Positions 7,154 to 61,880 of a stretch of DNA of 64,000 bases are shown in pieces. How positions within the stretch are numbered: position 1 is the stretch's first letter; each line of letters begins with the position of its first letter. Position numbers and translations under genes: made by a program. The notes beneath the pieces were generated by a model that was not told the DNA's origin, did not search any database, and worked only from the letters and a program-made list of their open reading frames with translations. Source of the stretch: a virus (lineage: Duplodnaviria > Caudoviricetes). The stretch lies in the IMG/VR virus record IMGVR_UViG_2885358051_000002, positions 26,284 through 90,283 of that record; one strand, given 5' to 3'.

Positions 7154-7708
7154 TCATTTTTTCATAAAACATATCCAATGGGTATTACTCCTTTTACCAG
7201 AAATATGTCCAAATACAGGCTTTTCTGATGTCAGTTTCAGAACTTCGGAAACTTTGATGTCTGTTTCATTCCATTTGAATATGAGAAATCCACCGTGCAT
7301 CAGAACTCTGAAACATTCATTGAAACCCTTGGACAACATATCGCGCCAATCTGAATACAATGCACCATATTTGATATGCTGATACCCTTTTGGTGTTGCT
7401 TTCTCATTAAGACTGCCATATATGTCAGCAAATTTTGAATTGCCGACGTTTCGCAACAGATGGGGGGGGTCAAAAACAACCATTGAAAAGTGTTCGTCTT
7501 CATACGGCATATTTGTGAAGTCTGCCTGAATATCAGGATCTACTTCAAATGTTCGTCCATCACACAACGTCGTTTCAAAACTGCGAATGTCTTGAAATAG
7601 CACCCTATCGTCGTTCTTGTCGAAGTAGAACATTTTTCCACCACAACAAGCATCAAGAATTGGCGAAGTATCTGTTTTGTTTATTTCTTTATGGTTTCTC
7701 ATTGACAA
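7154..7708 (-). CDS. Phage SAM-dependent methyltransferase (probable DNA amino-MTase)
   Basis: ILDACCGGKM SAM-binding motif, VVFDPPHL catalytic-type motif, GFLIFKWNE. Confidence 0.85.
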   Translation of the reverse strand: MSMRNHKEINKTDTSPILDACCGGKMFYFDKNDDRVLFQDIRSFETTLCDGRTFEVDPDIQADFTNMPYEDEHFSMVVFDPPHLLRNVGNSKFADIYGSLNEKATPKGYQHIKYGALYSDWRDMLSKGFNECFRVLMHGGFLIFKWNETDIKVSEVLKLTSEKPVFGHISGKRSNTHWICFMKK

Positions 7709-8282
7709 AATCCATTTGAGACAATTTATTATATAGAATCTTTACCGAAAGACGCGCATTGTCCGAAAGCACCAGTTTGTCAGGAGAGATATAAGCATCT
7801 AATGCGTCACGGAGCGAATCGAGAGTAGGGTTAGGCGCACAATCATGGTGTCCGCATCGCTCCATTATCAGCTCATCCATTTTCCGATTATGCTCCTTGA
7901 GTAATTCCAGCATCATATATCCGCACAAGGCTTCGGTACGCATATCCTGATAAGGTGCATTCGGAAGAAGACGACGTATGTCGTTATTCATTGAGCACCA
8001 CAGCACGGTAAAGTCATTTGCCGCTACCTTCAGAAATTTCTGCGATAGGGTAGAAATGCGCTTAATACCCATGTCATCCAAATTCTTTCTGAGTAGTTCA
8101 TCATACCTTTTATACAGGACACCTACGGTGCGTGAAAGTTTTTTAAGCACCTCTATACGGTATTTTGCTGCCAGTTCCGTGGTACGAACCGCATACTGCC
8201 ATGCTATGTCCGCTATTACCAATGGTCCCAATGCCATAAAGTAATTCTCCTGTTTGGTAAAAACCTTCAAGCGTTGTTCCAC
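7689..8282 (-). CDS. Hypothetical helical protein; in frame with the upstream radical SAM gene if the C11 tract at 8322-8332 loses one base
   Basis: GTG-start ORF overlapped 140 bp by the upstream ORF; its frame stays open back to the tract. Confidence 0.65.
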   Translation of the reverse strand: MEQRLKVFTKQENYFMALGPLVIADIAWQYAVRTTELAAKYRIEVLKKLSRTVGVLYKRYDELLRKNLDDMGIKRISTLSQKFLKVAANDFTVLWCSMNNDIRRLLPNAPYQDMRTEALCGYMMLELLKEHNRKMDELIMERCGHHDCAPNPTLDSLRDALDAYISPDKLVLSDNARLSVKILYNKLSQMDFVNEKP

Positions 8283-9237
8283 GCTTTGCCGTACCTGCTG
8301 GCGAAAGACCTCCTCCGAGCAGGGGGGGGGGGCGCATCAATGCCGACTGTAACGGAACCGATGGATTCTTGTCAGATACGGATAGGACAGACTGACAGAT
8401 AGGTTTGGCCGTTTGTGTGGTAGTACGGTCATCAGGAATAGTACTGTGCATATCATCCGGCCTGTTCTCCTTATAGAAACGGTTGATAGATTTCTTCCAT
8501 CGAACTATTACACCATGTTTTAGTGAAAGTTCCGTCACCTTATCTATGAAACGGTCGCACTGTGTCCAGTCGTATCGACGAGGCGAGTAAGGAGAGAGCA
8601 ATCCGATACGCAGTTCACGCACAAAAAGCATTATGTCAATAATACAACTTAGAGAATCATTGAAGTCAATGACCGGTTCGATGGAAGCGAAAACGGAGAA
8701 CTGCATCTCATGCAGCCGAGAAATAGCCTTTATGCGCTCCTGAGTAGAAGGGGCACCAGGTTCCATTTCATCATGTCCGGTCAGTGTGAAACCAATGTGA
8801 AGCAAATGGCGATAGGCATATAGAGAGCCAATATACACATCTTTATACAGCCAATTCACAGCCTTGGTAAGTATATATACCGGAACACCCTGAGATAGTG
8901 CATAATCTATGCACGTCATTGACAGATCCGTTGTCTGCGGAAGAAACGGGTCAGAAGAGAAAGAGAAGAACAAACCGCCATCCTCAATAATCCGCGTGCG
9001 ATACTTATCCAGTTCCTTGCGGAAGATACGGACGGCCGACCACTCATCACCCAACGTAGATTTCAGTACCGCGTGCGGTCCACCCAAAGTATGAGCCATC
9101 GGTCCACGTTTGCAATAGCAATACGAGCAATTATGGTCACAACCCTTGTAAAGGTTACATGCCCATAGGGAATACTCCTCAGCCGCGCCTGCTGGTTGGT
9201 AGATAGCCTTACCCTTTATACGAGATGTTTCTTTCAT
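8143..9237 (-). CDS. Radical SAM protein (SplB/photolyase-like phage family)
   Basis: CNLYKGCDHNCSYCY (CxxxCxxC), FSFSSDPF, ASIEPV; the C-terminus after the homopolymer looks out of frame. Confidence 0.85.
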   Translation of the reverse strand: MKETSRIKGKAIYQPAGAAEEYSLWACNLYKGCDHNCSYCYCKRGPMAHTLGGPHAVLKSTLGDEWSAVRIFRKELDKYRTRIIEDGGLFFSFSSDPFLPQTTDLSMTCIDYALSQGVPVYILTKAVNWLYKDVYIGSLYAYRHLLHIGFTLTGHDEMEPGAPSTQERIKAISRLHEMQFSVFASIEPVIDFNDSLSCIIDIMLFVRELRIGLLSPYSPRRYDWTQCDRFIDKVTELSLKHGVIVRWKKSINRFYKENRPDDMHSTIPDDRTTTQTAKPICQSVLSVSDKNPSVPLQSALMRPPPLLGGGLSPAGTAKRGTTLEGFYQTGELLYGIGTIGNSGHSMAVCGSYHGTGSKIPYRGA

Positions 9238-27887: not shown

Positions 27888-28096
27888 TCAAAAAAAGTAT
27901 TCAAAAAAGACTACCGTCTTCGGAAAATGAGCCAAAGATATAATATCCGATGCTGCCAAATACTCATAACGAGTATTCAGCGTGCAAGCTACTCCACCGT
28001 CCGCAGTATTGACAGGAACAATTTGCCCCCCCGAACAAACTTCGGAGAAGCGGAGGACGTGATGAAAAGTTTTAGGCAAGACGAATTACATTTCAT
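27888..28096 (-). CDS. MTase variable-region-like mini-module M8; G7 tract (28026-28032) needs +1 to join the coupled ATG frame
   Basis: MKCNSS...FVRGG|QIVPVNTADGGVACTLNTRYEYLAASDIISLAHFPKTVVFFEYFF; paralogous to M2; a TTG start at 28079 is an in-frame alternative. Confidence 0.6.
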
Positions 28097-28261
28097 GTTC
28101 TACAACTATATAGTGCATATTTCTATAAAATACTCCAGCAAGAAGTGTAGATGCTACCCCCCCATAGAACGCATATTATACAAATCCAGGAACTCTGCAT
28201 GATGTGTCGGAGTCCAACCCTTCTGTATGAGTTGTGTCAAGTTCTTATTATTCGCAGCCAT
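28086..28261 (-). CDS. Mini-module M7; G7 tract (28157-28163) gives ATG GGG GGG TAG, +1 restores the ORF
   Basis: MAANNKNLTQ...LDLYNMRSMGG|VASTLLAGVFYRNMHYIVVEHEM; 176 bp. Confidence 0.6.
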
Positions 28262-28429
28262 AATCATCATACTCTACCAATAAACACATAGGACATCTAT
28301 AGTCCGATGTACGTAAACAAGGACAAACAGGCTTCCACATAGGATGGTCAATCCCCCCCCCCCATGTCGCCATTCAAAGAAATGCCCCCAAATGTGCGGA
28401 GCACATTTATAGCCAGATACTATCATCAT
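28248..28429 (-). CDS. Mini-module M6; G11 tract (28353-28363) needs +1
   Basis: MMIVSGYKCAPHIWGHFFEWRHGGG|IDHPMWKPVCPCLRTSDYRCPMCLLVEYDDYGCE; 182 bp. Confidence 0.6.
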
Positions 28430-28588
28430 ATTCAATCAATATACCGGCATCCTGCATGTTGGCGCGGATGGTACGAGACAAGTTCCACAACGGACCACGG
28501 TTGAAATCCGGTGTACATTGACAATATACCCCCCCATTCGATATGGTAACGGAGTAGATGCCATCATTAAAGCAAACGTTCTATCCAT
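28407..28588 (-). CDS. Mini-module M5; G7 tract (28529-28535) needs +1
   Basis: ...RMGG|VYCQCTPDFNRGPLWNLSRTIRANMQDAGILIEYDDSIWL; 182 bp. Confidence 0.55.
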
Positions 28589-28776
28589 AAAAGGTTATCT
28601 TTTTGAACTGATGTAATTGTATTTGTAAACTTCTCGGAGCCCAATTCAATAACCTGATGAAAACGACGATCAGCATGAGCGCCGCGAAACGAAAGGTTGT
28701 CGAGATCACGATTGACAGAAGTTGCAATACGAACACCTGCAGAAGATTCTTCGGGGTATCGGTCATAGATATACAT
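28567..28776 (-). CDS. Mini-module M4 (TRD-like NTITSVQKDNL motif); frame stays open upstream through CACRGR without a start
   Basis: EKFTNTITSVQKDNLLWIE; the coupled ATG at 28855 is out of frame and there is no long G tract. Confidence 0.6.
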   Translation of the reverse strand: MYIYDRYPEESSAGVRIATSVNRDLDNLSFRGAHADRRFHQVIELGSEKFTNTITSVQKDNLLWIERLL

Positions 28777-28841
28777 ATTATCTTTACATCTGCCACGACA
28801 CGCACAAATGCAGACATAAGTAATACGTGCCGTTGGGGATT

Positions 28842-29042
28842 TTAATTAGTATCATACTCAACAAGAATAAGATTATCCTTCAAGACAGAAGTTATCGTGT
28901 TGGAGTACGAAGACAGGGAAGGAAGCAACTGCCGGTCAGAAAATCGACAAAAGCCCCCCCTATCACCATGTATGCGTCGCAAAAGACGAGCGTGTTCCGT
29001 GCGAACCGGAATAAGGACAGAAAAACACCTAACACAATCCAT
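28842..29042 (-). CDS. Mini-module M3, in frame across its G7 tract (28954-28960)
   Basis: ...HGDRGGF...SNTITSVLKDNLILVEYDTN; start overlaps the MTase stop. Confidence 0.7.
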   Translation of the reverse strand: MDCVRCFSVLIPVRTEHARLLRRIHGDRGGFCRFSDRQLLPSLSSYSNTITSVLKDNLILVEYDTN

Positions 29043-30177
29043 GCTCCTTGCGAAATGCAGCTATCTCATCATCAGACAACTTATGATCCGTATAAACGTA
29101 GATGATGTGAGCAGATTTATCTGCCTCGTTTGTCTGAAGAAACTTGATGACACTATCCGGTTTAAGGAAATAAGATTCGTCCACCTCTTCATCCAGTACA
29201 TCAGCAATACATTTCAACAACTTGAAAGATTTTGGGAAACGATAAACAGGAAGACCGAGGTCACGACGGACGGACAACATGAAAACTCGCTCACGGTTTT
29301 GCGGAACTCCATAGTCCTTAGCGTTGAGTATAGCCCAATAGTTATCATATCCACAATCACTGCACACCTGCTGCCAGGCACGGAAATCATCAATGTTCAC
29401 CTCATTAACCAATGCACGCACATTCTCTTGAAGCAAGAACTTCGGGTGCAAAGCACGGATGGCTTCCTCTGTGTACCACAAAATAGAAGAACGAGTACCA
29501 GAGCCTTTCTTAAGGCCTGCACGCTTGCCAGCCTGACTGATACTCTGACAAGGTGTAGAATAAGTGAGCATGTCAATGTCATCCTCTCCCTGTTCCTTGA
29601 GATGCTTACAGAAAGAATGCCAATCAATCTTCGTCATATCGCCGAGATTGCGGTCTTTCCATTGCGGGAAGAGCAAATTATGCGCTACCACAGCCGGCTG
29701 CCGTTCGAGAGGGACATTCGCTTTTTCCGGGTCAAATTCAGACCATGCCATCAACTCATAAGAAACGGTGTGCCCACCCTGGTTCGCGGCATCCACTAAC
29801 TGCTGCATAGCAATAGCTTGCGAGTCATAACCGGAACAAAGCGTGACAAGCCTTATTTTGGATGGCAACGGAGCACGGAATGTAGGGTCAGGAAACAAAT
29901 TATAGGCATCATCGGGGTCATCCTCCGTCAGCCAAATGTTGCGAAAGATATAGTAAAGGCAAGAGACCACAATACTGTTTCCTGCCAACTTGTATATAGA
30001 CGAGCGGGAAAGAGAAGAATCCTCACACATAGTAATGATGTCAGGCTCTGGTACATCCATCAGACGCAGGCACTCACGTTCAGTAAGTTTGCGAATGTCA
30101 AAATACCGGACAGGATGAGATGGGTCACGCTTTCCCTGTAAGTCAGGATGATTATCCGGGTATATTTTTGCAATCAT
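29029..30177 (-). CDS. Circularly permuted C5-cytosine DNA methyltransferase core (motif order IX-X-I...VIII) lacking a TRD
   Basis: RKLTERECLRLMD (IX), IYKLAGNSIVV (X), LCSGYDSQ (I), STPCQSISQAG (IV), QENV (VI), PQNRERVF (VIII). Confidence 0.9.
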   Translation of the reverse strand: MIAKIYPDNHPDLQGKRDPSHPVRYFDIRKLTERECLRLMDVPEPDIITMCEDSSLSRSSIYKLAGNSIVVSCLYYIFRNIWLTEDDPDDAYNLFPDPTFRAPLPSKIRLVTLCSGYDSQAIAMQQLVDAANQGGHTVSYELMAWSEFDPEKANVPLERQPAVVAHNLLFPQWKDRNLGDMTKIDWHSFCKHLKEQGEDDIDMLTYSTPCQSISQAGKRAGLKKGSGTRSSILWYTEEAIRALHPKFLLQENVRALVNEVNIDDFRAWQQVCSDCGYDNYWAILNAKDYGVPQNRERVFMLSVRRDLGLPVYRFPKSFKLLKCIADVLDEEVDESYFLKPDSVIKFLQTNEADKSAHIIYVYTDHKLSDDEIAAFRKEHGLC

Positions 30178-30211
30178 TTTTTTATTCTTTTATATCAAAA
30201 ATCTATTCAAA

Positions 30212-30398
30212 TTATAACTCATATTCATAAAGGACAACAGTCATAGGATAATGAGCCATTGAAATGATATTGCCACTTCCTATGGCTTCATAACGGGTTG
30301 TAAGCGTAGCCGAACAACCATCCGCTGTGGTATTGCAAGGTGTGATTTTACCCCCCGAAGAAGCGTGTAGTTCCTATATAAGTAATACTAAAAATCAT
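30212..30398 (-). CDS. Mini-module M2; G6 tract (30351-30356) gives GGG GGG TAA, -1 restores the ORF
   Basis: MIFSITYIGTTRFFG|GKITPCNTTADGCSATLTTRYEAIGSGNIISMAHYPMTVVLYEYEL; 187 bp. Confidence 0.6.
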
Positions 30399-30565
30399 AT
30401 TCAATCATAACTGCGGTTGCAAAAAAACCATTTCCTTTTGCAAACAAAAAGTTATAGACTCCCATTTTATAGTAATTCGCTTTAATGGTACGTACATTTT
30501 TCCCCCCCCCCATCTGCATTAAGGACAAATAATCTCTTAATGTTACGGTATCTTGCCCAAATCAT
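30388..30565 (-). CDS. Mini-module M1; G10 tract (30502-30511) needs -1
   Basis: MIWARYRNIKRLFVLNADGGG|KNVRTIKANYYKMG...ATAVMIEYDF; 178 bp. Confidence 0.62.
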
Positions 30566-30816
30566 TGAGGTGTTATTTCTTCGATGGTCACAGTATATCC
30601 TTCACCCTCTTCCGTCCGCCATTCTTTGCACCGAGGCAAATCTATCAACGTGTCGCCACATTGCTCATTGAATGTTCCCCTGCAATCAGCAAGTTCTTTT
30701 TCAAAAGCCCTCATTACATCATCCAGAGAGATGAAAAGATTATGTCTATCCGAAACATTTTCATGTGTTTCAAGGAGTGTCGCAAGAAGATAAAATTTCT
30801 GTTTCATTGTATTCAA
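30562..30816 (-). CDS. Hypothetical protein embedded in the module array
   Basis: 84 aa acidic ORF, coupled to the flanking modules. Confidence 0.65.
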   Translation of the reverse strand: MNTMKQKFYLLATLLETHENVSDRHNLFISLDDVMRAFEKELADCRGTFNEQCGDTLIDLPRCKEWRTEEGEGYTVTIEEITPQ

Positions 30817-30939
30817 TTAAAATTTTCGGTTTATCCATGTCATGTCCTTTACCCCCCCAGCCAAGCATAGTGCGATGCCGATGGGAGAAACTACGATGCC
30901 GTTCTGCGAAGGAGAATAGTAACCAAGAATTACCGGCAT
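30770..30939 (-). CDS. Mini-module M0b; G7 tract (30852-30858) needs +1
   Basis: MPVILGYYSPSQNGIVVSPIGIALCLAGG|GKGHDMDKPKILIEYNE; both halves read as MTase variable-region-like sequence; 170 bp. Confidence 0.65.
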
Positions 30940-30941
30940 GT

Positions 30942-31298
30942 TCACAGGCGATTGGACTGGCTTGCGGACCATACGAGGTTTTTATAATGATTATTGGAGC
31001 GATTACCATCCTTGTGCAGCACATGCGGGAGATTATCATCGTTGCGGACAAAAGACATGGCCACCAAACGGTGAACCTTAAAGTTCTTTCCCTGAATGCG
31101 AACGCGCCGATACCCCTTTCCATTGAAAGAGGCAATAGGACGAAAGTCCTGAAAAAACCTTGCAGCATCCATGTCGTAATAGCACAACGGCGAAGAACAG
31201 CCTGCACTGACCGTTCGGGAGGAATAAACCTCCCCACTGTCAGAAATGAAATAAGAGGTCCGGCCAACCTCATAGAATTTTCTCACTCTACAATTCAT
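30942..31298 (-). CDS. HNH (NUMOD4/HNH_3-type) endonuclease
   Basis: GKGYRRV...KVHRLVAMSFV...VLHKDGNRSNNHYKNLVW. Confidence 0.88.
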   Translation of the reverse strand: MNCRVRKFYEVGRTSYFISDSGEVYSSRTVSAGCSSPLCYYDMDAARFFQDFRPIASFNGKGYRRVRIQGKNFKVHRLVAMSFVRNDDNLPHVLHKDGNRSNNHYKNLVWSASQSNRL

Positions 31299-31471
31299 GT
31301 TCTATCAATATGTATGGTGTAGTATTATACATGTCCGTATTCTTGTCCTTGCATATACCCCCCCCCGGAGAATGAGGTAATGGTGTTGCATATATGTTTG
31401 AAGTGATAACGCAACACCGTCCCCCGTTTTTCTCCGGAGCGAGTCCACCCTATGAAATGACAGTCATTCAT
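31288..31471 (-). CDS. Mini-module M0; G9 tract (31358-31366) needs -1
   Basis: MNDCHFIGWTRSGEKRG...ICNTITSFSGG|GICKDKNTDMYNTTPYILIEHEL; 184 bp. Confidence 0.62.
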
Positions 31472-32603
31472 CAATGCGCATGGGCATTATCAATTCTATC
31501 AGTGAAGAATTGGTAGCATCCTCACGAACAGTCACTGCACGTTCAGGAGCAGACAATTCGAGACGAACATTATCCGTAGAGACGACAGAAAGAACCGTCA
31601 GGAAGTGACTCGAACGAAGACCAATAGCAAATCCGTCAGGAAGCGTACAATCATCAGAAGACAGGTCTTCGCGGGCCTTGCGTGAAAAGTCCACATCCTC
31701 GGCACAGAGAGAAACAGCACCATCCTGTTTGCGTATAGACACAATCTGTGTGGCAGAATTAGACATAAGGGACACGCGCTTGAGTGCATTTACAAGGTCA
31801 CGCACCGGCATGACAAGATGGTAAGGCGACTGTGCAGGAATGACCGAGTTGTAGTTCGGATATTTTCCCACTACATCCGTCACATAAAGTGTGGTGTCAT
31901 CAGCCGAAATGATCAGTTTCTTACCATCATGCCGCAAAGACACCATTTCCACATTTGCGAAGGCGGCATCAATCGCAGGAACAGCCTTTTTATATAATAG
32001 GATAAGACACGGTTTACCATTTGTAACAAACGGAATCCCATTCGTATAAACATACTTATAAAGCATGTGCCCGGATGTGGCAACAAAAGTAACCCCCTCG
32101 TTTGACACATCAAGCGCCACGGCACTCAGTTGTGGGCGCAAATCATCATCGGCTGTACAGGCAGATGCGGCCTTGACCGAAGGCAGAAAGACCGACAGAG
32201 GCAAAGAAAACTCAACCGTGGTGTTCTCCTGCTCAACTGGCAGAGGAAAGTCTGCACCATTAAAAGCCGGAACAGAGAAGTCACCACCCTTGTAACGAAA
32301 CGAAGCAAGAAAAGAGGTGTCATCTATTATCATTTCTACAGGCTGCTCCGGAAGCGTAGCCAAAATGGGTGAAACCATTGCCACTGGGAGGCAGAAAGGG
32401 CGAAAAACACCATTGTCCATGCGACGCAAGTCTATCGGCATTGTCAGTGTATTTTCGGATGACGAACCCGTAATGAAAAACTTATCATCCTTGAAAGACA
32501 CCAGCGCATTGTCAAGCAAAGGGAGCGTGTTTCGCTTGAGGATGACCTTAGAAACCGTGCTCAGCGCACGTAAAAGTTCTTTGGAAGAAACAGAAAATTT
32601 CAT
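31464..32603 (-). CDS. dnaN: DNA polymerase III beta sliding clamp homolog
   Basis: MKFSVSSKELL, DDDLRPQLSAV, VATSGHML, GKYPNYNSVIP, C-terminal LIMPM; 379 aa. Confidence 0.93.
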   Translation of the reverse strand: MKFSVSSKELLRALSTVSKVILKRNTLPLLDNALVSFKDDKFFITGSSSENTLTMPIDLRRMDNGVFRPFCLPVAMVSPILATLPEQPVEMIIDDTSFLASFRYKGGDFSVPAFNGADFPLPVEQENTTVEFSLPLSVFLPSVKAASACTADDDLRPQLSAVALDVSNEGVTFVATSGHMLYKYVYTNGIPFVTNGKPCLILLYKKAVPAIDAAFANVEMVSLRHDGKKLIISADDTTLYVTDVVGKYPNYNSVIPAQSPYHLVMPVRDLVNALKRVSLMSNSATQIVSIRKQDGAVSLCAEDVDFSRKAREDLSSDDCTLPDGFAIGLRSSHFLTVLSVVSTDNVRLELSAPERAVTVREDATNSSLIELIMPMRIDE

Positions 32604-37929: not shown

Positions 37930-38417
37930 GCGTTCTCAATTTGCCCCCCCCGGTCAATACACGAGACTTCTCGCTCAAACTCCTCCATAATGGCATAGAT
38001 ACCTACACGCTCAAAGTCCTCCCAATCATCCATCGAAAAGCGTTTAAGCGACGTAGTTATACTCATGCCCAATTCAGAGATATAGGCATGGAAAATCTTT
38101 TTCAATCCATAAGAGCGACCGAGCAGCCGGTAAAACTCCCCATTGACCGCATCAATTCCAGCTATCACCTTCTCAATATCCTCCGGCTCATGCTCCGGAA
38201 AAAGCTCTTTCACGTGAGTGCGGATAAAGTCATGTTTGATTGCCGTAATGCCCATCAGTTCCCACCGGAAAAAACCCTTCTCGAAAAATCGGTCATAGGA
38301 AAAACCCTGTTTAGCCCCATGACGTGCCATGACTTCCCACAGAAAGACCTTCTGATTAGGAGTCAGATCATCGCAGTTCAGATGTGTACGTGGTTGTGAT
38401 AATTTGTCTGCTATCAT
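37926..38417 (-). CDS. Hypothetical protein, first gene of the leftward operon (possible Cro-like regulator)
   Basis: Divergent from the HTH repressor gene. Confidence 0.65.
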   Translation of the reverse strand: MIADKLSQPRTHLNCDDLTPNQKVFLWEVMARHGAKQGFSYDRFFEKGFFRWELMGITAIKHDFIRTHVKELFPEHEPEDIEKVIAGIDAVNGEFYRLLGRSYGLKKIFHAYISELGMSITTSLKRFSMDDWEDFERVGIYAIMEEFEREVSCIDRGGQIENA

Positions 38418-44816: not shown

Positions 44817-45413
44817 ATGGCAAAAAAAGATTGGAAGGGAGGGAAAGCCTCTGTATTCAAAACCATAGGAGCCAGTAACCACGTGGATCATGAAAGGGCT
44901 CATGCGGACTACTATGCCACAGAACCAAAGGCAACAGAATGGCTGTTGAAATTAGAAAAATTCGATGGGCCAATCCTTGAACCCGCCTGTGGAGAGGGAC
45001 ATATCTCCGATGTTTTAATCAGGGGGGGCCATTCTGTAACATCGAGAGACCTTATAGACCGAGGTTATGGAGAAGTGGCAGACTTCCTTTCCATCGACAA
45101 CCAGGAATGGAACGGAAACATTGTCACCAATCCACCATACGCCTACGCACAAGAGTTTGTGGAAAAAGCTCTCTCAATCGTACCAGACGGGAAAAAAGTG
45201 TGCATGTTTTTGAAACTGACATTCCTCGAAGGAAAAGGAAGAAAGCACTTATTCAGGACTCAGCCACCGAGCAGAGTATGGGTAAGCTGCTCGCGACTTC
45301 TATGCGCCATGAACGGAAAATTTGATGAGATAAGCGGAAGCGCCACAGCCTATGGATGGTTCGTATGGGAAAAAGGCTACAAAGGAGAGACCATTATCAA
45401 ATGGTTTAATTAG
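44817..45413 (+). CDS. Phage DNA adenine methyltransferase-like protein
   Basis: DYYATE, ILEPACGEGHIS, IVTNPPY, WFVWEKG. Confidence 0.88.
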   Translation: MAKKDWKGGKASVFKTIGASNHVDHERAHADYYATEPKATEWLLKLEKFDGPILEPACGEGHISDVLIRGGHSVTSRDLIDRGYGEVADFLSIDNQEWNGNIVTNPPYAYAQEFVEKALSIVPDGKKVCMFLKLTFLEGKGRKHLFRTQPPSRVWVSCSRLLCAMNGKFDEISGSATAYGWFVWEKGYKGETIIKWFN

Positions 45414-45423
45414 AAAACAATCC

Positions 45424-45680
45424 ATGACAGGAAAAGTACGACATTTCAAAGCGACAAGACCCTTACTCACTACTTCTGTCCGGGGGGGGGGCAAATGTGG
45501 CTATTGATACGCCAAGCCACAGAAAAAGGCTATATAGAATGTTGCGACAAAGGTGTTTTCGATATAGCCTACCCCAATTCCGAGTTGCGCAGAGCGAGGG
45601 TAAAGGATGATGGAAAGAGCGCATCCGCACTCATGGCTGGAGAACCTTCGCAATGCGTGTTTGTAGAATACGAAATATAA
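45424..45680 (+). CDS. Mini-module M9 (C5-MTase variable-region-like); G10 tract (45482-45491) needs +1, internal ATG at 45495
   Basis: IRQATEKGYIEC...VFDIAYPNSELRRARV...VFVEYEI resembles the phage Dcm variable-region segment; same hydrophobic-EY ending as the other modules. Confidence 0.65.
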
Positions 45681-45689
45681 CAAAAAACA

Positions 45690-46502
45690 ATGGAAATAGA
45701 ACCCAACCATATCTACCTTGGTGATTGCCTCGAAGTCATGGCAGGCATGAAAAATGGAAGCGTGGATGCCATCATCTGCGATCTGCCATACGAGGTACTG
45801 CACAAGAACAACCCACATGCCAAATGGGATAAAATGTTACCACTGGATAAACTGTGGGAACAATACGAACGTATCATCAAGGAAGATGGAGCCATTATCT
45901 TGTTCGGGCAAGGTATGTTTACTGCCAAACTTATGACGAGCAATCCGAAAATGTGGCGGTACAATCTGGTATGGGACAAAATGCGAAGTACTGGGTTTCT
46001 GAATGCCAACAGGATGCCATTGCGTTGCCATGAAGTGATAAGCGTGTTTTACAAACAGATGCCAGTATATCACCCCCAGATGATGATAGGCGACTGCAAC
46101 CATTCAAGAGGAAGACAAGAATGGGAACAGACGAACAACTGCTACGGGCAATACAAAACCGGCAGGACAGACGACTACGACAAGAAAATAAAAAAGGTAG
46201 TACCTACCAGACCGAATGAAAAATTCCCCACCAGCATTATCCGTATAGCAAAGGAACATGAGACCACCGTATTTCATCCGACACAGAAACCCATAGACCT
46301 GATAAGATACCTGATAAGGACCTATACAGACAAGGGAGATGTAGTATTAGACAATACGATGGGAAGTGGAACAACCTGCATAGGCTGCATCATGGAAAAC
46401 CGACGATATATCGGCATCGAAAAAGACATGAAGTATTTTGAAGTAGCGAAAAAGCGGATAGAAGCACAAAAGAGACAATATAAATTGGAATTAGATATAT
46501 GA
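45690..46502 (+). CDS. Site-specific DNA methyltransferase (N4-C/N6-A, beta class)
   Basis: IICDLPY, HPTQKP, VVLDNTMGSGTT, IGIE. Confidence 0.92.
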   Translation: MEIEPNHIYLGDCLEVMAGMKNGSVDAIICDLPYEVLHKNNPHAKWDKMLPLDKLWEQYERIIKEDGAIILFGQGMFTAKLMTSNPKMWRYNLVWDKMRSTGFLNANRMPLRCHEVISVFYKQMPVYHPQMMIGDCNHSRGRQEWEQTNNCYGQYKTGRTDDYDKKIKKVVPTRPNEKFPTSIIRIAKEHETTVFHPTQKPIDLIRYLIRTYTDKGDVVLDNTMGSGTTCIGCIMENRRYIGIEKDMKYFEVAKKRIEAQKRQYKLELDI

Positions 46503-47657
46503 AAACAAATATAACCTTGGAAGAAGCTATGGAACGTGCTACTGGTAGATTACGCAGGAAGATGGAATACTCCATTTCCTTGCTGCGTAAAGCGGAACGA
46601 ATTGCACAATCCTATGACAAAGAGAACGGTTTTTACCTCGCCTTCAGCGGAGGTAAAGACAGCCAGACACTCTTCCATATCACCGAACTGGCAGGTGTAA
46701 AATTCCAGGCACACATGAGCCTGACGAGCGTGGATCCACCAGATGTGATACGTTTCGTGAAGCGGAACTACCCAGAAGTAGAACTTATCGCCCCTAAAAA
46801 AAGCATCTATGCAGTAGCGGTAGAAAAACAGATACTGCCCACCATGAGAGTAAGATGGTGCTGTAACGAATACAAAGAGGGTGCCGGAGCAGGGAAAGTA
46901 ACACTCATCGGCATACGGCACGAGGAAAGTAGCCGCAGAAAAGCACGCAAGGAAGTGGAAATATCGAGCAAAAAGTTCAGCGGGACACTGGAAGGACTTG
47001 ATGTGTATAGGGCAAAACAGAAAAAGAAGACACATTCTAAAGAAACCAATATCACCAATGCCGAAGAAGAAAGTACAGCCGGCTGCATACACGGTAAGGA
47101 AAGTCTGCTCATCTCCCCTATCATCCATTGGACGGAAAGAGATGTGTGGGAGTTCCTGAATGATGTGATGCAGGTGGCACATTGCAACCTGTATGATGAG
47201 GGGTACAGAAGGATAGGTTGCATCGGGTGCCCAATGGCAAATCTAAAACAAAAACAAAGAGAAAACCAACGTTGGCCACACGTGAAGCGCAACTGGATAA
47301 AAGCCATTATAGCCATCCGAACCGGGGGGGGTATAAGAAAGAACTCTTATCAGAAAAACATTTGGAATCCATCTGGTACGGCATCGGGAAAGAATGGACA
47401 CCCATCAACAGCAGGAAAGAGCGATGCCGGCTACATCCTACACCCAGACCCATCCCATTGGGGGGGGAAAAAAAGCGAGAAAACAGAGGATTATGGAAGG
47501 GTTTTCCGAATGCTCGTCATCTGACGGCTTGACTGACGAGCAAGAGCGGAAAATAGCCGAAAATATCTACGACTGGTGGATAAGCGGGATGTCCTACAAA
47601 AAATGGTATGCAAAAAAGTTCCTACAATACCAATTTAATTTTTCAGAAAAAGAATAA
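46499..47657 (+). CDS. PAPS reductase family protein; C-terminus shifted at the G8A7 tract (47460-47474)
   Basis: AFSGGKDS, RWCCNEYKE, GIRHEES, LYDEGYRRIGCIGCP; as given it stops at 47524, and -1 at the tract joins the WWISG...QYQFNF tail. Confidence 0.8.
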
Positions 47658-59594: not shown

Positions 59595-61880
59595 TTAATC
59601 AGTGATTTCGCCCCCCCCATATAACGTGGGGGATTCTGGCTTATCTTCTTTGATAACTACCTCATGCCCGGCATCCTCAAGGCATCGGACATAGTGCCCT
59701 ATCTGGTCGGCCGCCAGAGGCAGGAGAACAAAAAGATAAGGATAGTCTTCTGCATCCTCTGTAAACACACGCGGAGCGATAGCCGGGAAATGATTAAGCA
59801 CTACTGAAGCTATTTGGGCATCCCGTCCGTAAAGTTCGTAATACTCGCCCATTAGGAAAAAAAATATGGTGGAATGATTCGCCTTTTTCAGTTCGTGGAA
59901 TCGCTTGTAATTTCGGCCGTAATGCTCGCGTGCCATATCCAGCGTGTAGCCATACTTGGCAGCGATGGCAGCGTCTTCCTCGGTGATTTTCTGTGATTTC
60001 GCAGACACGCTATAACGGGGTGCATCCTGTACTGTTTCCGTTGCTTCCGACACCTCGGCCGGGGTTGGAGAGGGTGCAACCTCTCCCGTGTCCGTGTCTG
60101 CCTCCTGCTGCTCACCCTGACCAAACCATGCACGCACGGTGGCGATGGCGTAAGGCTCCGTAGCCTGCCACTGCTTCGCCTCCTTGTTCCAGATGCAGCC
60201 ATGCGCCTTGATCTCGCGCTTATGGAAATACGTATCTTTCCAATCGGCACCCACTACGGCCACACCGCCTTCCGGTAGTTCTACCAGTGACAAACCGGGC
60301 GCGGGGGCTGCGTTGCTCTCTGTTGCCTCGTTTTCTTTGCTCTGGCGGCTTTTCTTGCCGCGTGTGGTGGTCGGGTTGGGCGTGGGTGCTTCGGGCTTCT
60401 TATAGTAACTTGTATGAACAAAAACACGGTGTGCAATCTCACCCGTATATACACGGCTGTAGTCTCCGTGGGGAAATACCGTACACACGGAAAGTCCAAA
60501 GGCCTCAGACACGGCGCGTACTTCCGCATCCGTATAGTCGTGCGGCTTCTCATAGTTGCCGTCCTTGCCTTCGTCGGCGGCGGGTGCTGCTGCGTAAATG
60601 GTAGCAATGAGTTCGGCGCGTTTCTCGTCGCTCATCGTGCGGTTAGTCTCGATGGAGTTTGAAGTACCAATAAACTTGTCGGCAAAGTCCGTGTGCTCTT
60701 CCCTGACGGTATATGCCATGTCCTGCATACCGTCGAAGGAGTCGTGGAATGTTACAAACAGGTTCAAATCGGTGGCGGCGTCAAATTCTTCTTTGGTCGG
60801 TCCATCCTGCCAGCTTACCACATAGTCTTTACCCCATCCGTCGTACTTCTTTACTGAGAATTTAACACCGGGGAAGGCCGCCTGAGCCATCGCCAATATA
60901 TTGCGTTTGCGGGCGTTGTTGCGCTTCGTCTCGGCACTCCTGAGTGCTTTTGCTTCGCGAGAGTTCCGGCGGTGGCGATAGTCTAATTTTTCGTAGGATC
61001 TATAACAAGAGGCCACGGCGTCATCGTAGGGCTTAATCGGATCCATGATGCCCTCCCATTTCTGGCAGCGTGCGCGGTAGTCTGCCAGACGGTCGGCGGC
61101 TTCCTGTTCCTTCTGGCGCTCCTCCTCGGCCTTCTGTTCAGCAAACAGGCGGCGGAACTCTGCAACCTCGGAGGCCATAACCTCCTCCCATGTCAGGGGA
61201 CTATAATAGTAGCGCACATAGTCGTAACCCTCAGCGTCTGCCAGATACCAGCGGCCGGACTTATCCACGACGGCGGCGGCGATGGTATAAAATGTGGATA
61301 ACTCCTCCTTTGTCGGGTTGAACTCGCAGAAGTCGTCACCGACATCCTCGGAACGGCATCCGCCATGCAGCGCGTAGTCAGCAACCAGGCGGTCGCAGTC
61401 CTCGGGAGATGTGGGCAGCTCATCAACGCGGATCACCTTCTCAATACAGCACAGGCGGGGGAGGTCTTCGCGTTCCTCGTCCTTGAACTTAACAAGGTAC
61501 TTTAATTCATCCCTGTAGCCTCCGTCACCCTTAAAATAGGTGGACACAGCCCACACGAATTGTCCTTCACGTATAGGGGCGGGGCAGCCGGCGCCCTTGT
61601 GCTCGTCGGCTTCCAGTTCGTGCGCATGGAACTGGCTACGCTCGTATGCTTCGGCCTTTTCATGGATAGCCTTGCGGGCCTCACTTTCGGCGGCAAGTAC
61701 AGTTTTTTCACCAAAGGTTTTAAGGAATGCCGGACGGCTCAGTGGAGCCATGACGCCGGCCCATCCACATATACCTTCATATTGTTCGTTTTCCGTGTGA
61801 TATGCAGCGGAAAGTATAGGATTAGACAATACTTCGGCCAAACGGGCCACTATCTGCTCAAATGATACTGAATTTTTCAT
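59595..61880 (-). CDS. Polyvalent-type early protein with LPD29-like and C-terminal MutS-I-like domains (start at MKNS)
   Basis: AAFPGVKFSVKK...VSWQDGPT (LPD29-like); YKRFHELKK...IFFFLMGEYYELYGRDA (MutS domain I-like). Confidence 0.72.
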   Translation of the reverse strand: MKNSVSFEQIVARLAEVLSNPILSAAYHTENEQYEGICGWAGVMAPLSRPAFLKTFGEKTVLAAESEARKAIHEKAEAYERSQFHAHELEADEHKGAGCPAPIREGQFVWAVSTYFKGDGGYRDELKYLVKFKDEEREDLPRLCCIEKVIRVDELPTSPEDCDRLVADYALHGGCRSEDVGDDFCEFNPTKEELSTFYTIAAAVVDKSGRWYLADAEGYDYVRYYYSPLTWEEVMASEVAEFRRLFAEQKAEEERQKEQEAADRLADYRARCQKWEGIMDPIKPYDDAVASCYRSYEKLDYRHRRNSREAKALRSAETKRNNARKRNILAMAQAAFPGVKFSVKKYDGWGKDYVVSWQDGPTKEEFDAATDLNLFVTFHDSFDGMQDMAYTVREEHTDFADKFIGTSNSIETNRTMSDEKRAELIATIYAAAPAADEGKDGNYEKPHDYTDAEVRAVSEAFGLSVCTVFPHGDYSRVYTGEIAHRVFVHTSYYKKPEAPTPNPTTTRGKKSRQSKENEATESNAAPAPGLSLVELPEGGVAVVGADWKDTYFHKREIKAHGCIWNKEAKQWQATEPYAIATVRAWFGQGEQQEADTDTGEVAPSPTPAEVSEATETVQDAPRYSVSAKSQKITEEDAAIAAKYGYTLDMAREHYGRNYKRFHELKKANHSTIFFFLMGEYYELYGRDAQIASVVLNHFPAIAPRVFTEDAEDYPYLFVLLPLAADQIGHYVRCLEDAGHEVVIKEDKPESPTLYGGGEITD

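Follow-up and report, generated by a model that had tools for sequence, protein, structure and literature searches.

In this study we analyzed a 64-kb (64,000 nt) stretch of a Caudoviricetes genome (positions 26,284-90,283 of IMGVR_UViG_2885358051_000002; hereafter the window), which carries on its minus strand a C5 cytosine methyltransferase (C5-MTase) gene surrounded by ten mini-genes. An earlier note, made from the DNA letters without database searches, had proposed that these mini-genes encode separate specificity modules of the methyltransferase and that poly-G tracts within them act as switches. The ten open reading frames (ORFs) were found by three-frame reading of both flanks of the methyltransferase core, four of them upstream (U1 to U4) and six downstream (D1 to D6) (Table 1). 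Their products are roughly 45-70 aa long. All ten read in one direction. Every module has a start and a stop of its own, and for most of them the stops and starts of neighbors overlap by 4-31 nt, in agreement with their earlier description as translationally coupled ORFs.

The methyltransferase core is circularly permuted, with motif order IX-X-I-IV-VI-VIII. In phmmer alignments against the PDB, core residues 28-82 align to M.HhaI 271-319 (motifs IX-X), and the counterpart of residues 194-343 is M.HhaI 65-213, which comprises motifs IV-VIII and the first part of the variable region. Residues 214-270 of M.HhaI, the target-recognition domain (TRD) proper, have no equivalent in the core. The chain has 39 aa beyond the aligned part and begins with MIAKIYP, 27 aa ahead of motif IX, and the TRD is not located at the chain start. 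The translation shows TPCQ (motif IV), QENV (motif VI), QNRER (motif VIII), RKLTEREC and AGNSIVV. As a member of PF00145, the protein thus contains motifs IV, VI, VIII, IX and X, and the TRD that lies between VIII and IX is absent from the chain. Both the permutation and the loss of the TRD, as read earlier from the sequence, are borne out by the M.HhaI alignment. Both ends of the core are invariant (N-terminal MIAKIYP, C-terminal I.Y..TDHKLS). A large subfamily of the permuted core (P0050, P0062, P0091, P0095 and their relatives) has two insertions, one of ~100-150 aa that separates motifs IX and X and is acidic and probably helical, and another of ~19 aa that precedes motif VIII. Intein domains (PF14890, PF13403) occur in the core homologs P0026 and P0028.

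The window modules were assigned by eye to about 8 of at least 12 types, which were defined from intact copies in relatives. Common to all types is a T/S-L/I dipeptide motif, in many cases with Gly-Gly-Gly after it, and nearly all of them end in a hydrophobic strand of the form ...IEY[DE]. The module motifs quoted in the earlier note are present in the translations, and the hydrophobic-E-Y/H ending that it gave for the modules is found in nine of the ten; D2 departs from it and ends in LLWIERLL. The same nine modules contain, as had been noticed, a tract of six to eleven G, usually at Gly-Gly(-Gly) codons, and D2 is again the exception.

Frames were called by homology to intact relatives. On this basis only D1, with an in-frame tract, and the tract-less D2 are intact in the window, and 8 of the 10 modules are out of frame. 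An in-frame 63-aa ORF starting with TTG at D6 and short ATG forms at U3 and D4 all lack the conserved N-terminal part. The frames given in the earlier note needed a correction: besides D1, which is in frame, U2, D6 and the long form of D4 require one additional G, U1, U3, U4 and D5 require two (equivalent to the loss of one), and the two parts of D3 lie in different frames.

Table 1. Features of the methylase-module locus in the window, with the length of each tract in L004, a nearly identical contig from another sample.
Feature	Description	Position	Strand	G tract	Frame in the window	Tract in L004
Whole locus	permuted C5-MTase and ten co-directional mini-ORFs	27888-31474	minus			
U1	type A (CNTITSF.GGG ... 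ILIEHEL)	31474->31288	minus	G9, 31358-31366	out of frame, needs +2/-1 G	G8, in frame
HNH_3 gene	homing-type endonuclease, 118 aa; PF13392, phrog_59	30942-31298	minus			
U2	type B (YSPSQNGIVVSP.GIALCLAGGG.GHD..KPKILIEY)	30972->30770	minus	G7, 30852-30858	out of frame, needs +1 G	G6
84-aa ORF	between U2 and U3	30562-30816	minus			
U3	type C (RTIKANYYK ... VMIEYDF)	30565->30388	minus	G10, 30502-30511	out of frame, needs +2 G	G6, in frame; also 3 fewer A
U4	type D (ATLTTRYE ... VVLYEYEL)	30398->30212	minus	G6, 30351-30356	out of frame, needs +2 G	G8, in frame
Core	C5 cytosine MTase, 382 aa; PF00145, E=3.5e-44	29029-30177	minus			
D1	type E (RIHGDRGG ... SNTITSVLKDNLILVEYD)	29042->28842	minus	G7, 28954-28960	in frame (ON)	G7, unchanged
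D2	69 aa (NTITSVQKDNLLWIE)	28776->28567	minus	none	intact	
D3	type F (...SRTIRANMQDAGILIEYDD)	28588->28407	minus	G7, 28529-28535	N- and C-parts in different frames	G9
D4	type G (...CPCLRTSDYRCPMCLLVEYDD)	28435->28248	minus	G11, 28353-28363	long form needs +1 G; short ATG (28373) form in frame	
D5	type H (GWTPTHHAEFLDLYN..GG VASTLLAG..YRNMHYIVVEHEM)	28270->28086	minus	G7, 28157-28163	out of frame, needs +2 G	G6
D6	type D, paralog of U4 (ACTLNTRYE ... VVFFEYFF)	28096->27888	minus	G7, 28026-28032	conserved N-part (ATG 28096) out of frame, needs +1 G	G9

Homology of the modules to target-recognition units

The modules have no Pfam-based annotation. PHROGs contained no family for D1 or D2, the two modules tested, and an ESM Atlas search with D2 returned nothing usable. 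A profile made from type B/J modules (alignment A2) did match M.HhaI at residues 224-257, inside the segment that is absent from the core, with E=4.5e-4. This match places the type B/J modules within the C5-MTase variable region. Searched against 1.84 billion representatives, the same profile found 1112 proteins at E<=1e-3. Among the best 150 matches, 49 are stand-alone proteins of 37-126 aa, and most of the others combine C5-MTase motifs with 2-7 tandem matches; PF00145 was present in 9 of the 10 tandem-match proteins that were scanned. Some results of these searches were set aside. The type B/J profile also matched ankyrin/DARPin sequences, which is repeat noise, and none of the MTase motifs searched for was seen in its top match, P0124 (2128 aa). 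A type I module profile had no meaningful match in the PDB.

The relatives with several TRDs either have the canonical motif order (P0126, P0148) or are chains composed of a TRD array followed by motifs IX-X (P0130, P0168, P0260). Internal units of tandem-TRD PF00145 proteins match nine of the ten window modules, D3 being the one that was not queried. In P0212 (777 aa), motifs I-VIII are followed by about nine TRD units, in which types J/B, D, C, G and A can be recognized by resemblance, and then by a IX-X region closely similar to the N-terminal part of the window core. Units homologous to U3 and D4 are found in this same protein, those homologous to U4 in P0260, and those homologous to D2 in P0253, P0197 and P0163. 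For D1, homologous units occur in P0168 and P0240, with E ~3e-10 in a small library.

Modules are also found joined to the core itself. A type A module is fused to it in P0009, and a type H module is fused in frame to its N-terminus (MIAKIYP) in P0033 and in ~20 further homologs. These fused relatives (P0009, P0033, P0069 and others) begin with the TRD and have the order TRD-IX-X-I..VIII, which is the topology of the permuted enzymes known as type H. Fused forms with a type A module are limited to one lineage. Judged by their sequences, the module-core proteins are Rosetta-stone fusions. With MAFFT the free modules could not be placed on the fused protein, and that alignment was not used.

Homology to the M.HhaI TRD, homology to tandem TRD units and the existence of natural module-core fusions identify the modules as C5-MTase TRD units, homologous to the tandem units of multispecific enzymes. 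The earlier proposal that they are specificity units is upheld by these comparisons, and the segment absent from the core is exactly the segment that the modules would supply. Since the modules match TRD units and the core lacks a TRD, the window holds the parts of a multispecific C5-MTase in which each TRD has become its own gene.

Poly-G tracts, conservation and selection

The tracts are concentrated at this locus. The plus strand of the window contains 12 runs of at least six C, and nine of them lie within 28026-31366, where ~0.2 would be expected from the rate outside. Variation in their length can be followed by comparison with L004, which is ~96-97% identical to the window over 6.8 kb: 7 of the 8 shared tracts differ in length (Table 1). 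Summed over four near-identical pairs, indel differences affect 18 of 34 G/C runs of six or more bases compared with 1 of 14 A/T runs, and other short indels number just 7 in ~25 kb. That lengths vary between near-identical phages while other indels are rare is in line with the slippage switch put forward in the earlier note.

To classify tracts more widely, each was read with 0, 1 or 2 G added, and the product was matched to intact modules of unrelated loci. This assigned 145 tracts, of which 59 (41%) are in frame, 45 need one G and 41 need two, although the assignment is biased towards 'in frame' because intact modules made up its library. The commonest length, with 50 tracts, is G8, to which 37 of the 59 in-frame tracts belong, and it is flanked by G7 (43) and G9 (28). 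Such a mixture of in-frame and out-of-frame states together with a mode at G8 is the signature of DNA-level contingency loci, and neither a fixed programmed frameshift nor random decay fits it. The tabulated lengths are polymorphic among related genomes, with both states represented, as a slippage mechanism had led the earlier note to expect. An in-ORF homopolymer that sets the frame, and whose length is polymorphic among near-identical genomes, is what defines simple sequence repeat (SSR) contingency loci. Seen in this light, the tracts probably behave as hypermutable switches.

Changes at the locus are not restricted to tract length. At L004:5254-5392, corresponding to 28274-28426 of the window, an unrelated module type (RYPHGYFSGG...FIVFEYDD) takes the place of D4 (type G). 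The boundaries of the replacement coincide with the module ends, and homology restarts exactly at the shared ...EYDD / ATG junction, which indicates that modules are also exchanged as cassettes.

Other long G/C runs are found in the window at 7462-7469, 8322-8332, 37944-37951, 45022-45028, 45482-45491, 47324-47331, 47460-47467 and 59611-59618. Some of them lie in or beside a radical-SAM gene (8143-9237), whose adjacent ORFs (7154-8282) resemble frame-shifted continuations. A G10 is located just upstream of an N6/N4 DNA methyltransferase gene (45690-46502), two G8 runs are near the end of a PAPS-reductase-domain gene (46499-47524), and a further long G/C run is at or beside the 3' end of a gene encoding a 795-aa LPD29/MutS_I protein. 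Further DNA-modification genes of the phage may likewise be subject to poly-G switching.

A related core is encoded by 42 viral contigs, in which the arrangement of the locus is kept. In ~19 of the 44 loci examined, at least three coding-strand G runs, and up to 13 per locus, lie beside the core, with few C runs. Module stops, starts and order are kept across relatives whose MTases are just 47-82% identical, and arrays of intact stand-alone ORFs are conserved at many loci in the absence of a fused copy. Low-GC relatives keep the free-standing module array with G runs almost absent. This indicates that the split architecture is basal and that the tracts are a lineage-specific overlay derived from the use of GGG codons. 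Among individual modules, D2 is kept in L001/L043 at 75% identity with a ratio of nonsynonymous to synonymous differences (pN/pS) of 0.22, U2 is in frame with G8 in the same two relatives, and intact relatives exist for D3 (type F; L015, L017, L025) and for D6 (L013, L017, L043). In one low-GC relative (L010:3001-3315), a single 104-aa ORF contains a type C module joined to one of type D, which shows how fluid the boundaries between modules are.

Pairwise comparison with five relatives gave pN/pS values of 0.19-0.39 for the module N-parts, 0.23-0.32 for the C-parts and 0.16-0.40 for the MTase, which are approximate because pS is almost saturated and similarity at the protein level was used to pick out the pieces. 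By this measure both module halves are clearly constrained by purifying selection, to an extent similar to that of the MTase, even though they lie in different frames in this genome. Lack of such selection had been named in the earlier note as part of an outcome that would speak against its proposal, and the opposite was observed.

Proposed mechanism, alternatives and known systems

We propose that the locus encodes a split, multispecific phage C5-MTase, in which a permuted core is combined with free TRD mini-proteins that are switched by poly-G slippage, and we assign this reading a probability of roughly 0.6. We lean, with somewhat less confidence, towards a more far-reaching form of it. In that form the holoenzyme would consist of the permuted core and any one of ~10 interchangeable free TRDs of ~60 aa, the per-gene poly-G switches would let one phage lineage explore methylome states by the hundred (2^9 in this phage), the logic of separate specificity subunits known from Type I systems would have arisen independently in the C5 family, and the arrangement would be widespread in gut and rumen phages.

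According to the proposed mechanism, a translated TRD mini-protein would dock non-covalently on the core and complete its small domain. The likely contact would be between the C-terminal hydrophobic-IEY strand of the module and the N-terminal MIAKIYP and C-terminal I.Y..TDH segments of the core, and the docked module would set the sequence to be methylated. Replication slippage would alter the length of the G run and bring the module halves into or out of frame, such that each specificity would be toggled independently and heritably. The purpose of such an enzyme might be to hedge bets, with protection against the host's Type II restriction on one side and exposure to methylation-dependent restriction on the other. 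From the features described above we infer this role, as well as docking in trans and the specificities of methylation. Docking is plausible given the IEY tail in nearly all module types, the invariant core termini and the known complementation of C5-MTase fragments cut at the TRD boundary. In AlphaFold2 models of the fusion protein P0033, pLDDT (predicted local distance difference test) was 80-97 for the core and below 50 for the module, over residues 1-49 with a shallow alignment and 1-57 with one ~20 sequences deep.

Several points weigh against the proposed system. With 8 of its 10 modules out of frame, it would be largely silent in this genome. At U3, D4 and D6 the ON/OFF calls are made less clear by short in-frame starts, and the tract lengths are assembled consensuses from different samples, not reads of a single population. 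The composition of the classification library and the near-saturated pS, both mentioned above, belong to the same side of the balance. Finally, binding of free modules to the core, and the specificities that they would confer, we infer from sequence.

Among the alternatives, one keeps the split multi-TRD methylase but explains the tracts by programmed slippage, in which RNA polymerase or the ribosome would provide a constant low level of every module, whatever the allele. Long G runs can indeed slip during transcription, and it would be understandable that most window modules are out of frame and yet have both halves conserved. We nevertheless consider this explanation unlikely. Shifts of either direction (+1 and +2 G) would be needed, G6-G7 runs are short for slipping efficiently during transcription, and near-identical genomes can differ in whether a given module is in frame. 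The clustering of lengths at the in-frame G8, with G7 and G9 as neighbors, is likewise a DNA-level contingency pattern.

Slightly less credible is that the tract differences are sequencing or assembly errors, in which case all modules would be in frame and the split multispecific methylase would be constitutive and non-switching. Differences of two or more bases in several of the tracts shared with L004, and the stability of A/T runs of equal length, are difficult to reconcile with this possibility, even if homopolymers are error-prone and the lengths come from metagenome assemblies, one of them at ~11x coverage. Long genes in the window are intact, among them those that contain A8 runs (the primase gene and the gene for the 795-aa protein), and dozens of independent assemblies show the pattern again, with an in-frame length that is consistent among them. 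In addition, low-GC relatives encode the equivalent glycines without G runs, which indicates that the runs are a selected codon choice.

We regard as very unlikely that the mini-ORFs are silent cassettes, one of which would be fused by recombination to the core N-terminus at an expression site, instead of working as free subunits. Fused forms among the relatives, and the exact replacement of D4 in the 96-97% identical L004, are what such a system would generate, but a repeat search found no long repeats among the modules (only a 14-nt IEYD-coding match) and no flanking inverted repeats. The array also contains no recombinase, every module starts at a codon of its own that overlaps with the stop before it, and many loci keep intact stand-alone arrays with no fused copy. 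Least probable is that the modules are decaying, frameshift-broken fragments of an ancestral tandem-TRD gene with no present function, since the existence of tandem-TRD ancestors and the number of out-of-frame modules in the window are outweighed by pN/pS of 0.2-0.4 on both halves (equal to the MTase), by the conservation of stops, starts and order despite the divergence of the MTases, by the 41% of tracts in frame and by the confinement of the breaks to G runs.

The genomic setting is that of a tailed phage, with a 1927-aa tape-measure protein, a sliding clamp (PF00712/PF02768), a 1211-aa primase-like protein and an HNH endonuclease, and every gene across ~24-37 kb of the window lies on the minus strand. 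The HNH_3 gene is located between U1 and U2 and overlaps both; a gene of this kind is found at the equivalent position in L001, L004 and L005. A 167-aa ORF in another frame (30770-31273) overlaps the HNH_3 gene entirely and continues into the C-part of U2. The 84-aa ORF between U2 and U3, whose stop overlaps the U3 start (ATGA), has no Pfam or PHROG match, and in L001 its position is held by a further TRD module. A blastn search of the locus against a phage collection gave no match.

If the split methylase with individually switched TRD genes is real, C5 specificity could be supplied in trans by a free 45-70-aa subunit, which would offer a toolkit for programmable writers of 5-methylcytosine. 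It would also represent a phage-encoded form of combinatorial epigenetic bet-hedging in the arms race with restriction and methylation-dependent restriction, and it would account for many of the tiny ORFs that lack annotation, and of the 'frameshifted' regions, in genomes of gut and rumen phages. The link between genotype, in the form of tract lengths, and methylation motif would be testable in metagenomes.

A full-text literature search found no description of free-standing TRD arrays or of poly-G-switched C5 TRDs. C5-MTases are textbook single-chain enzymes, with specificity residing in an internal TRD. In the multispecific C5-MTases of Bacillus phages, such as M.SPRI, M.Phi3TI, M.Rho11sI and M.H2I, as well as M.phiBssHII with TRDs at separated locations, one catalytic core is served by several TRD units, each presumably for its own target. 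The window resembles these enzymes in this respect, in its phage setting and in the presumed anti-restriction role, and uncharacterized relatives of this kind (P0126, P0148, P0212) have tandem TRD units to which its modules are homologous in sequence. However, the TRDs of multispecific enzymes are contiguous in one polypeptide that is always expressed, whereas those of the window are separate genes with both ends free, most of them with a G run, and the core is permuted. Literature on the multispecific enzymes of Bacillus phages is listed in PMC8936443.

Natural permuted C5-MTases of type H, namely M.BssHII, M.Alw26I, M2.Eco31I, M.Esp3I and M2.BsaI (PMC5944983), share with the window core the position of motifs IX-X ahead of I-VIII. 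The type H chain begins with the TRD, whereas the window chain starts after it, so that the TRD is outside the enzyme. Split or permuted C5-MTases cut near the TRD can complement each other (PMC5944983; PMC3404938), and activity is divided over polypeptides cut in or near the variable region in the two-subunit enzymes M.AquI and M.EcoHK31I (PMC3404938), as it would be in the window. The small subunit of M.AquI contains half of the variable region together with IX-X, and that of M.EcoHK31I contains motif IX only; the window modules, in contrast, consist of the TRD alone, with none of the conserved motifs, and IX-X are on the core. Proteins with the AquI-like arrangement exist among the relatives, in the TRD array and IX-X chains described above. 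M.AquI and M.EcoHK31I have neither alternative subunits nor repeat tracts, unlike the window system.

Switching by SSR tracts is familiar from phasevarions, in which tracts in Type III mod and Type I hsdS/hsdM genes switch the methyltransferase or specificity genes of restriction-modification systems. As in the window, the frame depends on an in-ORF homopolymer, near-identical genomes differ in tract length, and the methylome can be switched, which for the window is the interpretation offered here. Phasevarions are bacterial, concern N6-adenine methylation and have one or a few switches, whereas the window kind would be a phage C5 enzyme with up to 13 specificity genes per locus that are switched independently. 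Hypermutable poly-G tracts are also known in receptor-binding genes of Campylobacter phages. These are likewise phage poly-G contingency loci, although their target is host recognition and not DNA modification. The window system combines features of multispecific, type H, two-subunit and SSR-switched systems, and it departs from each of the first three in a defining feature.

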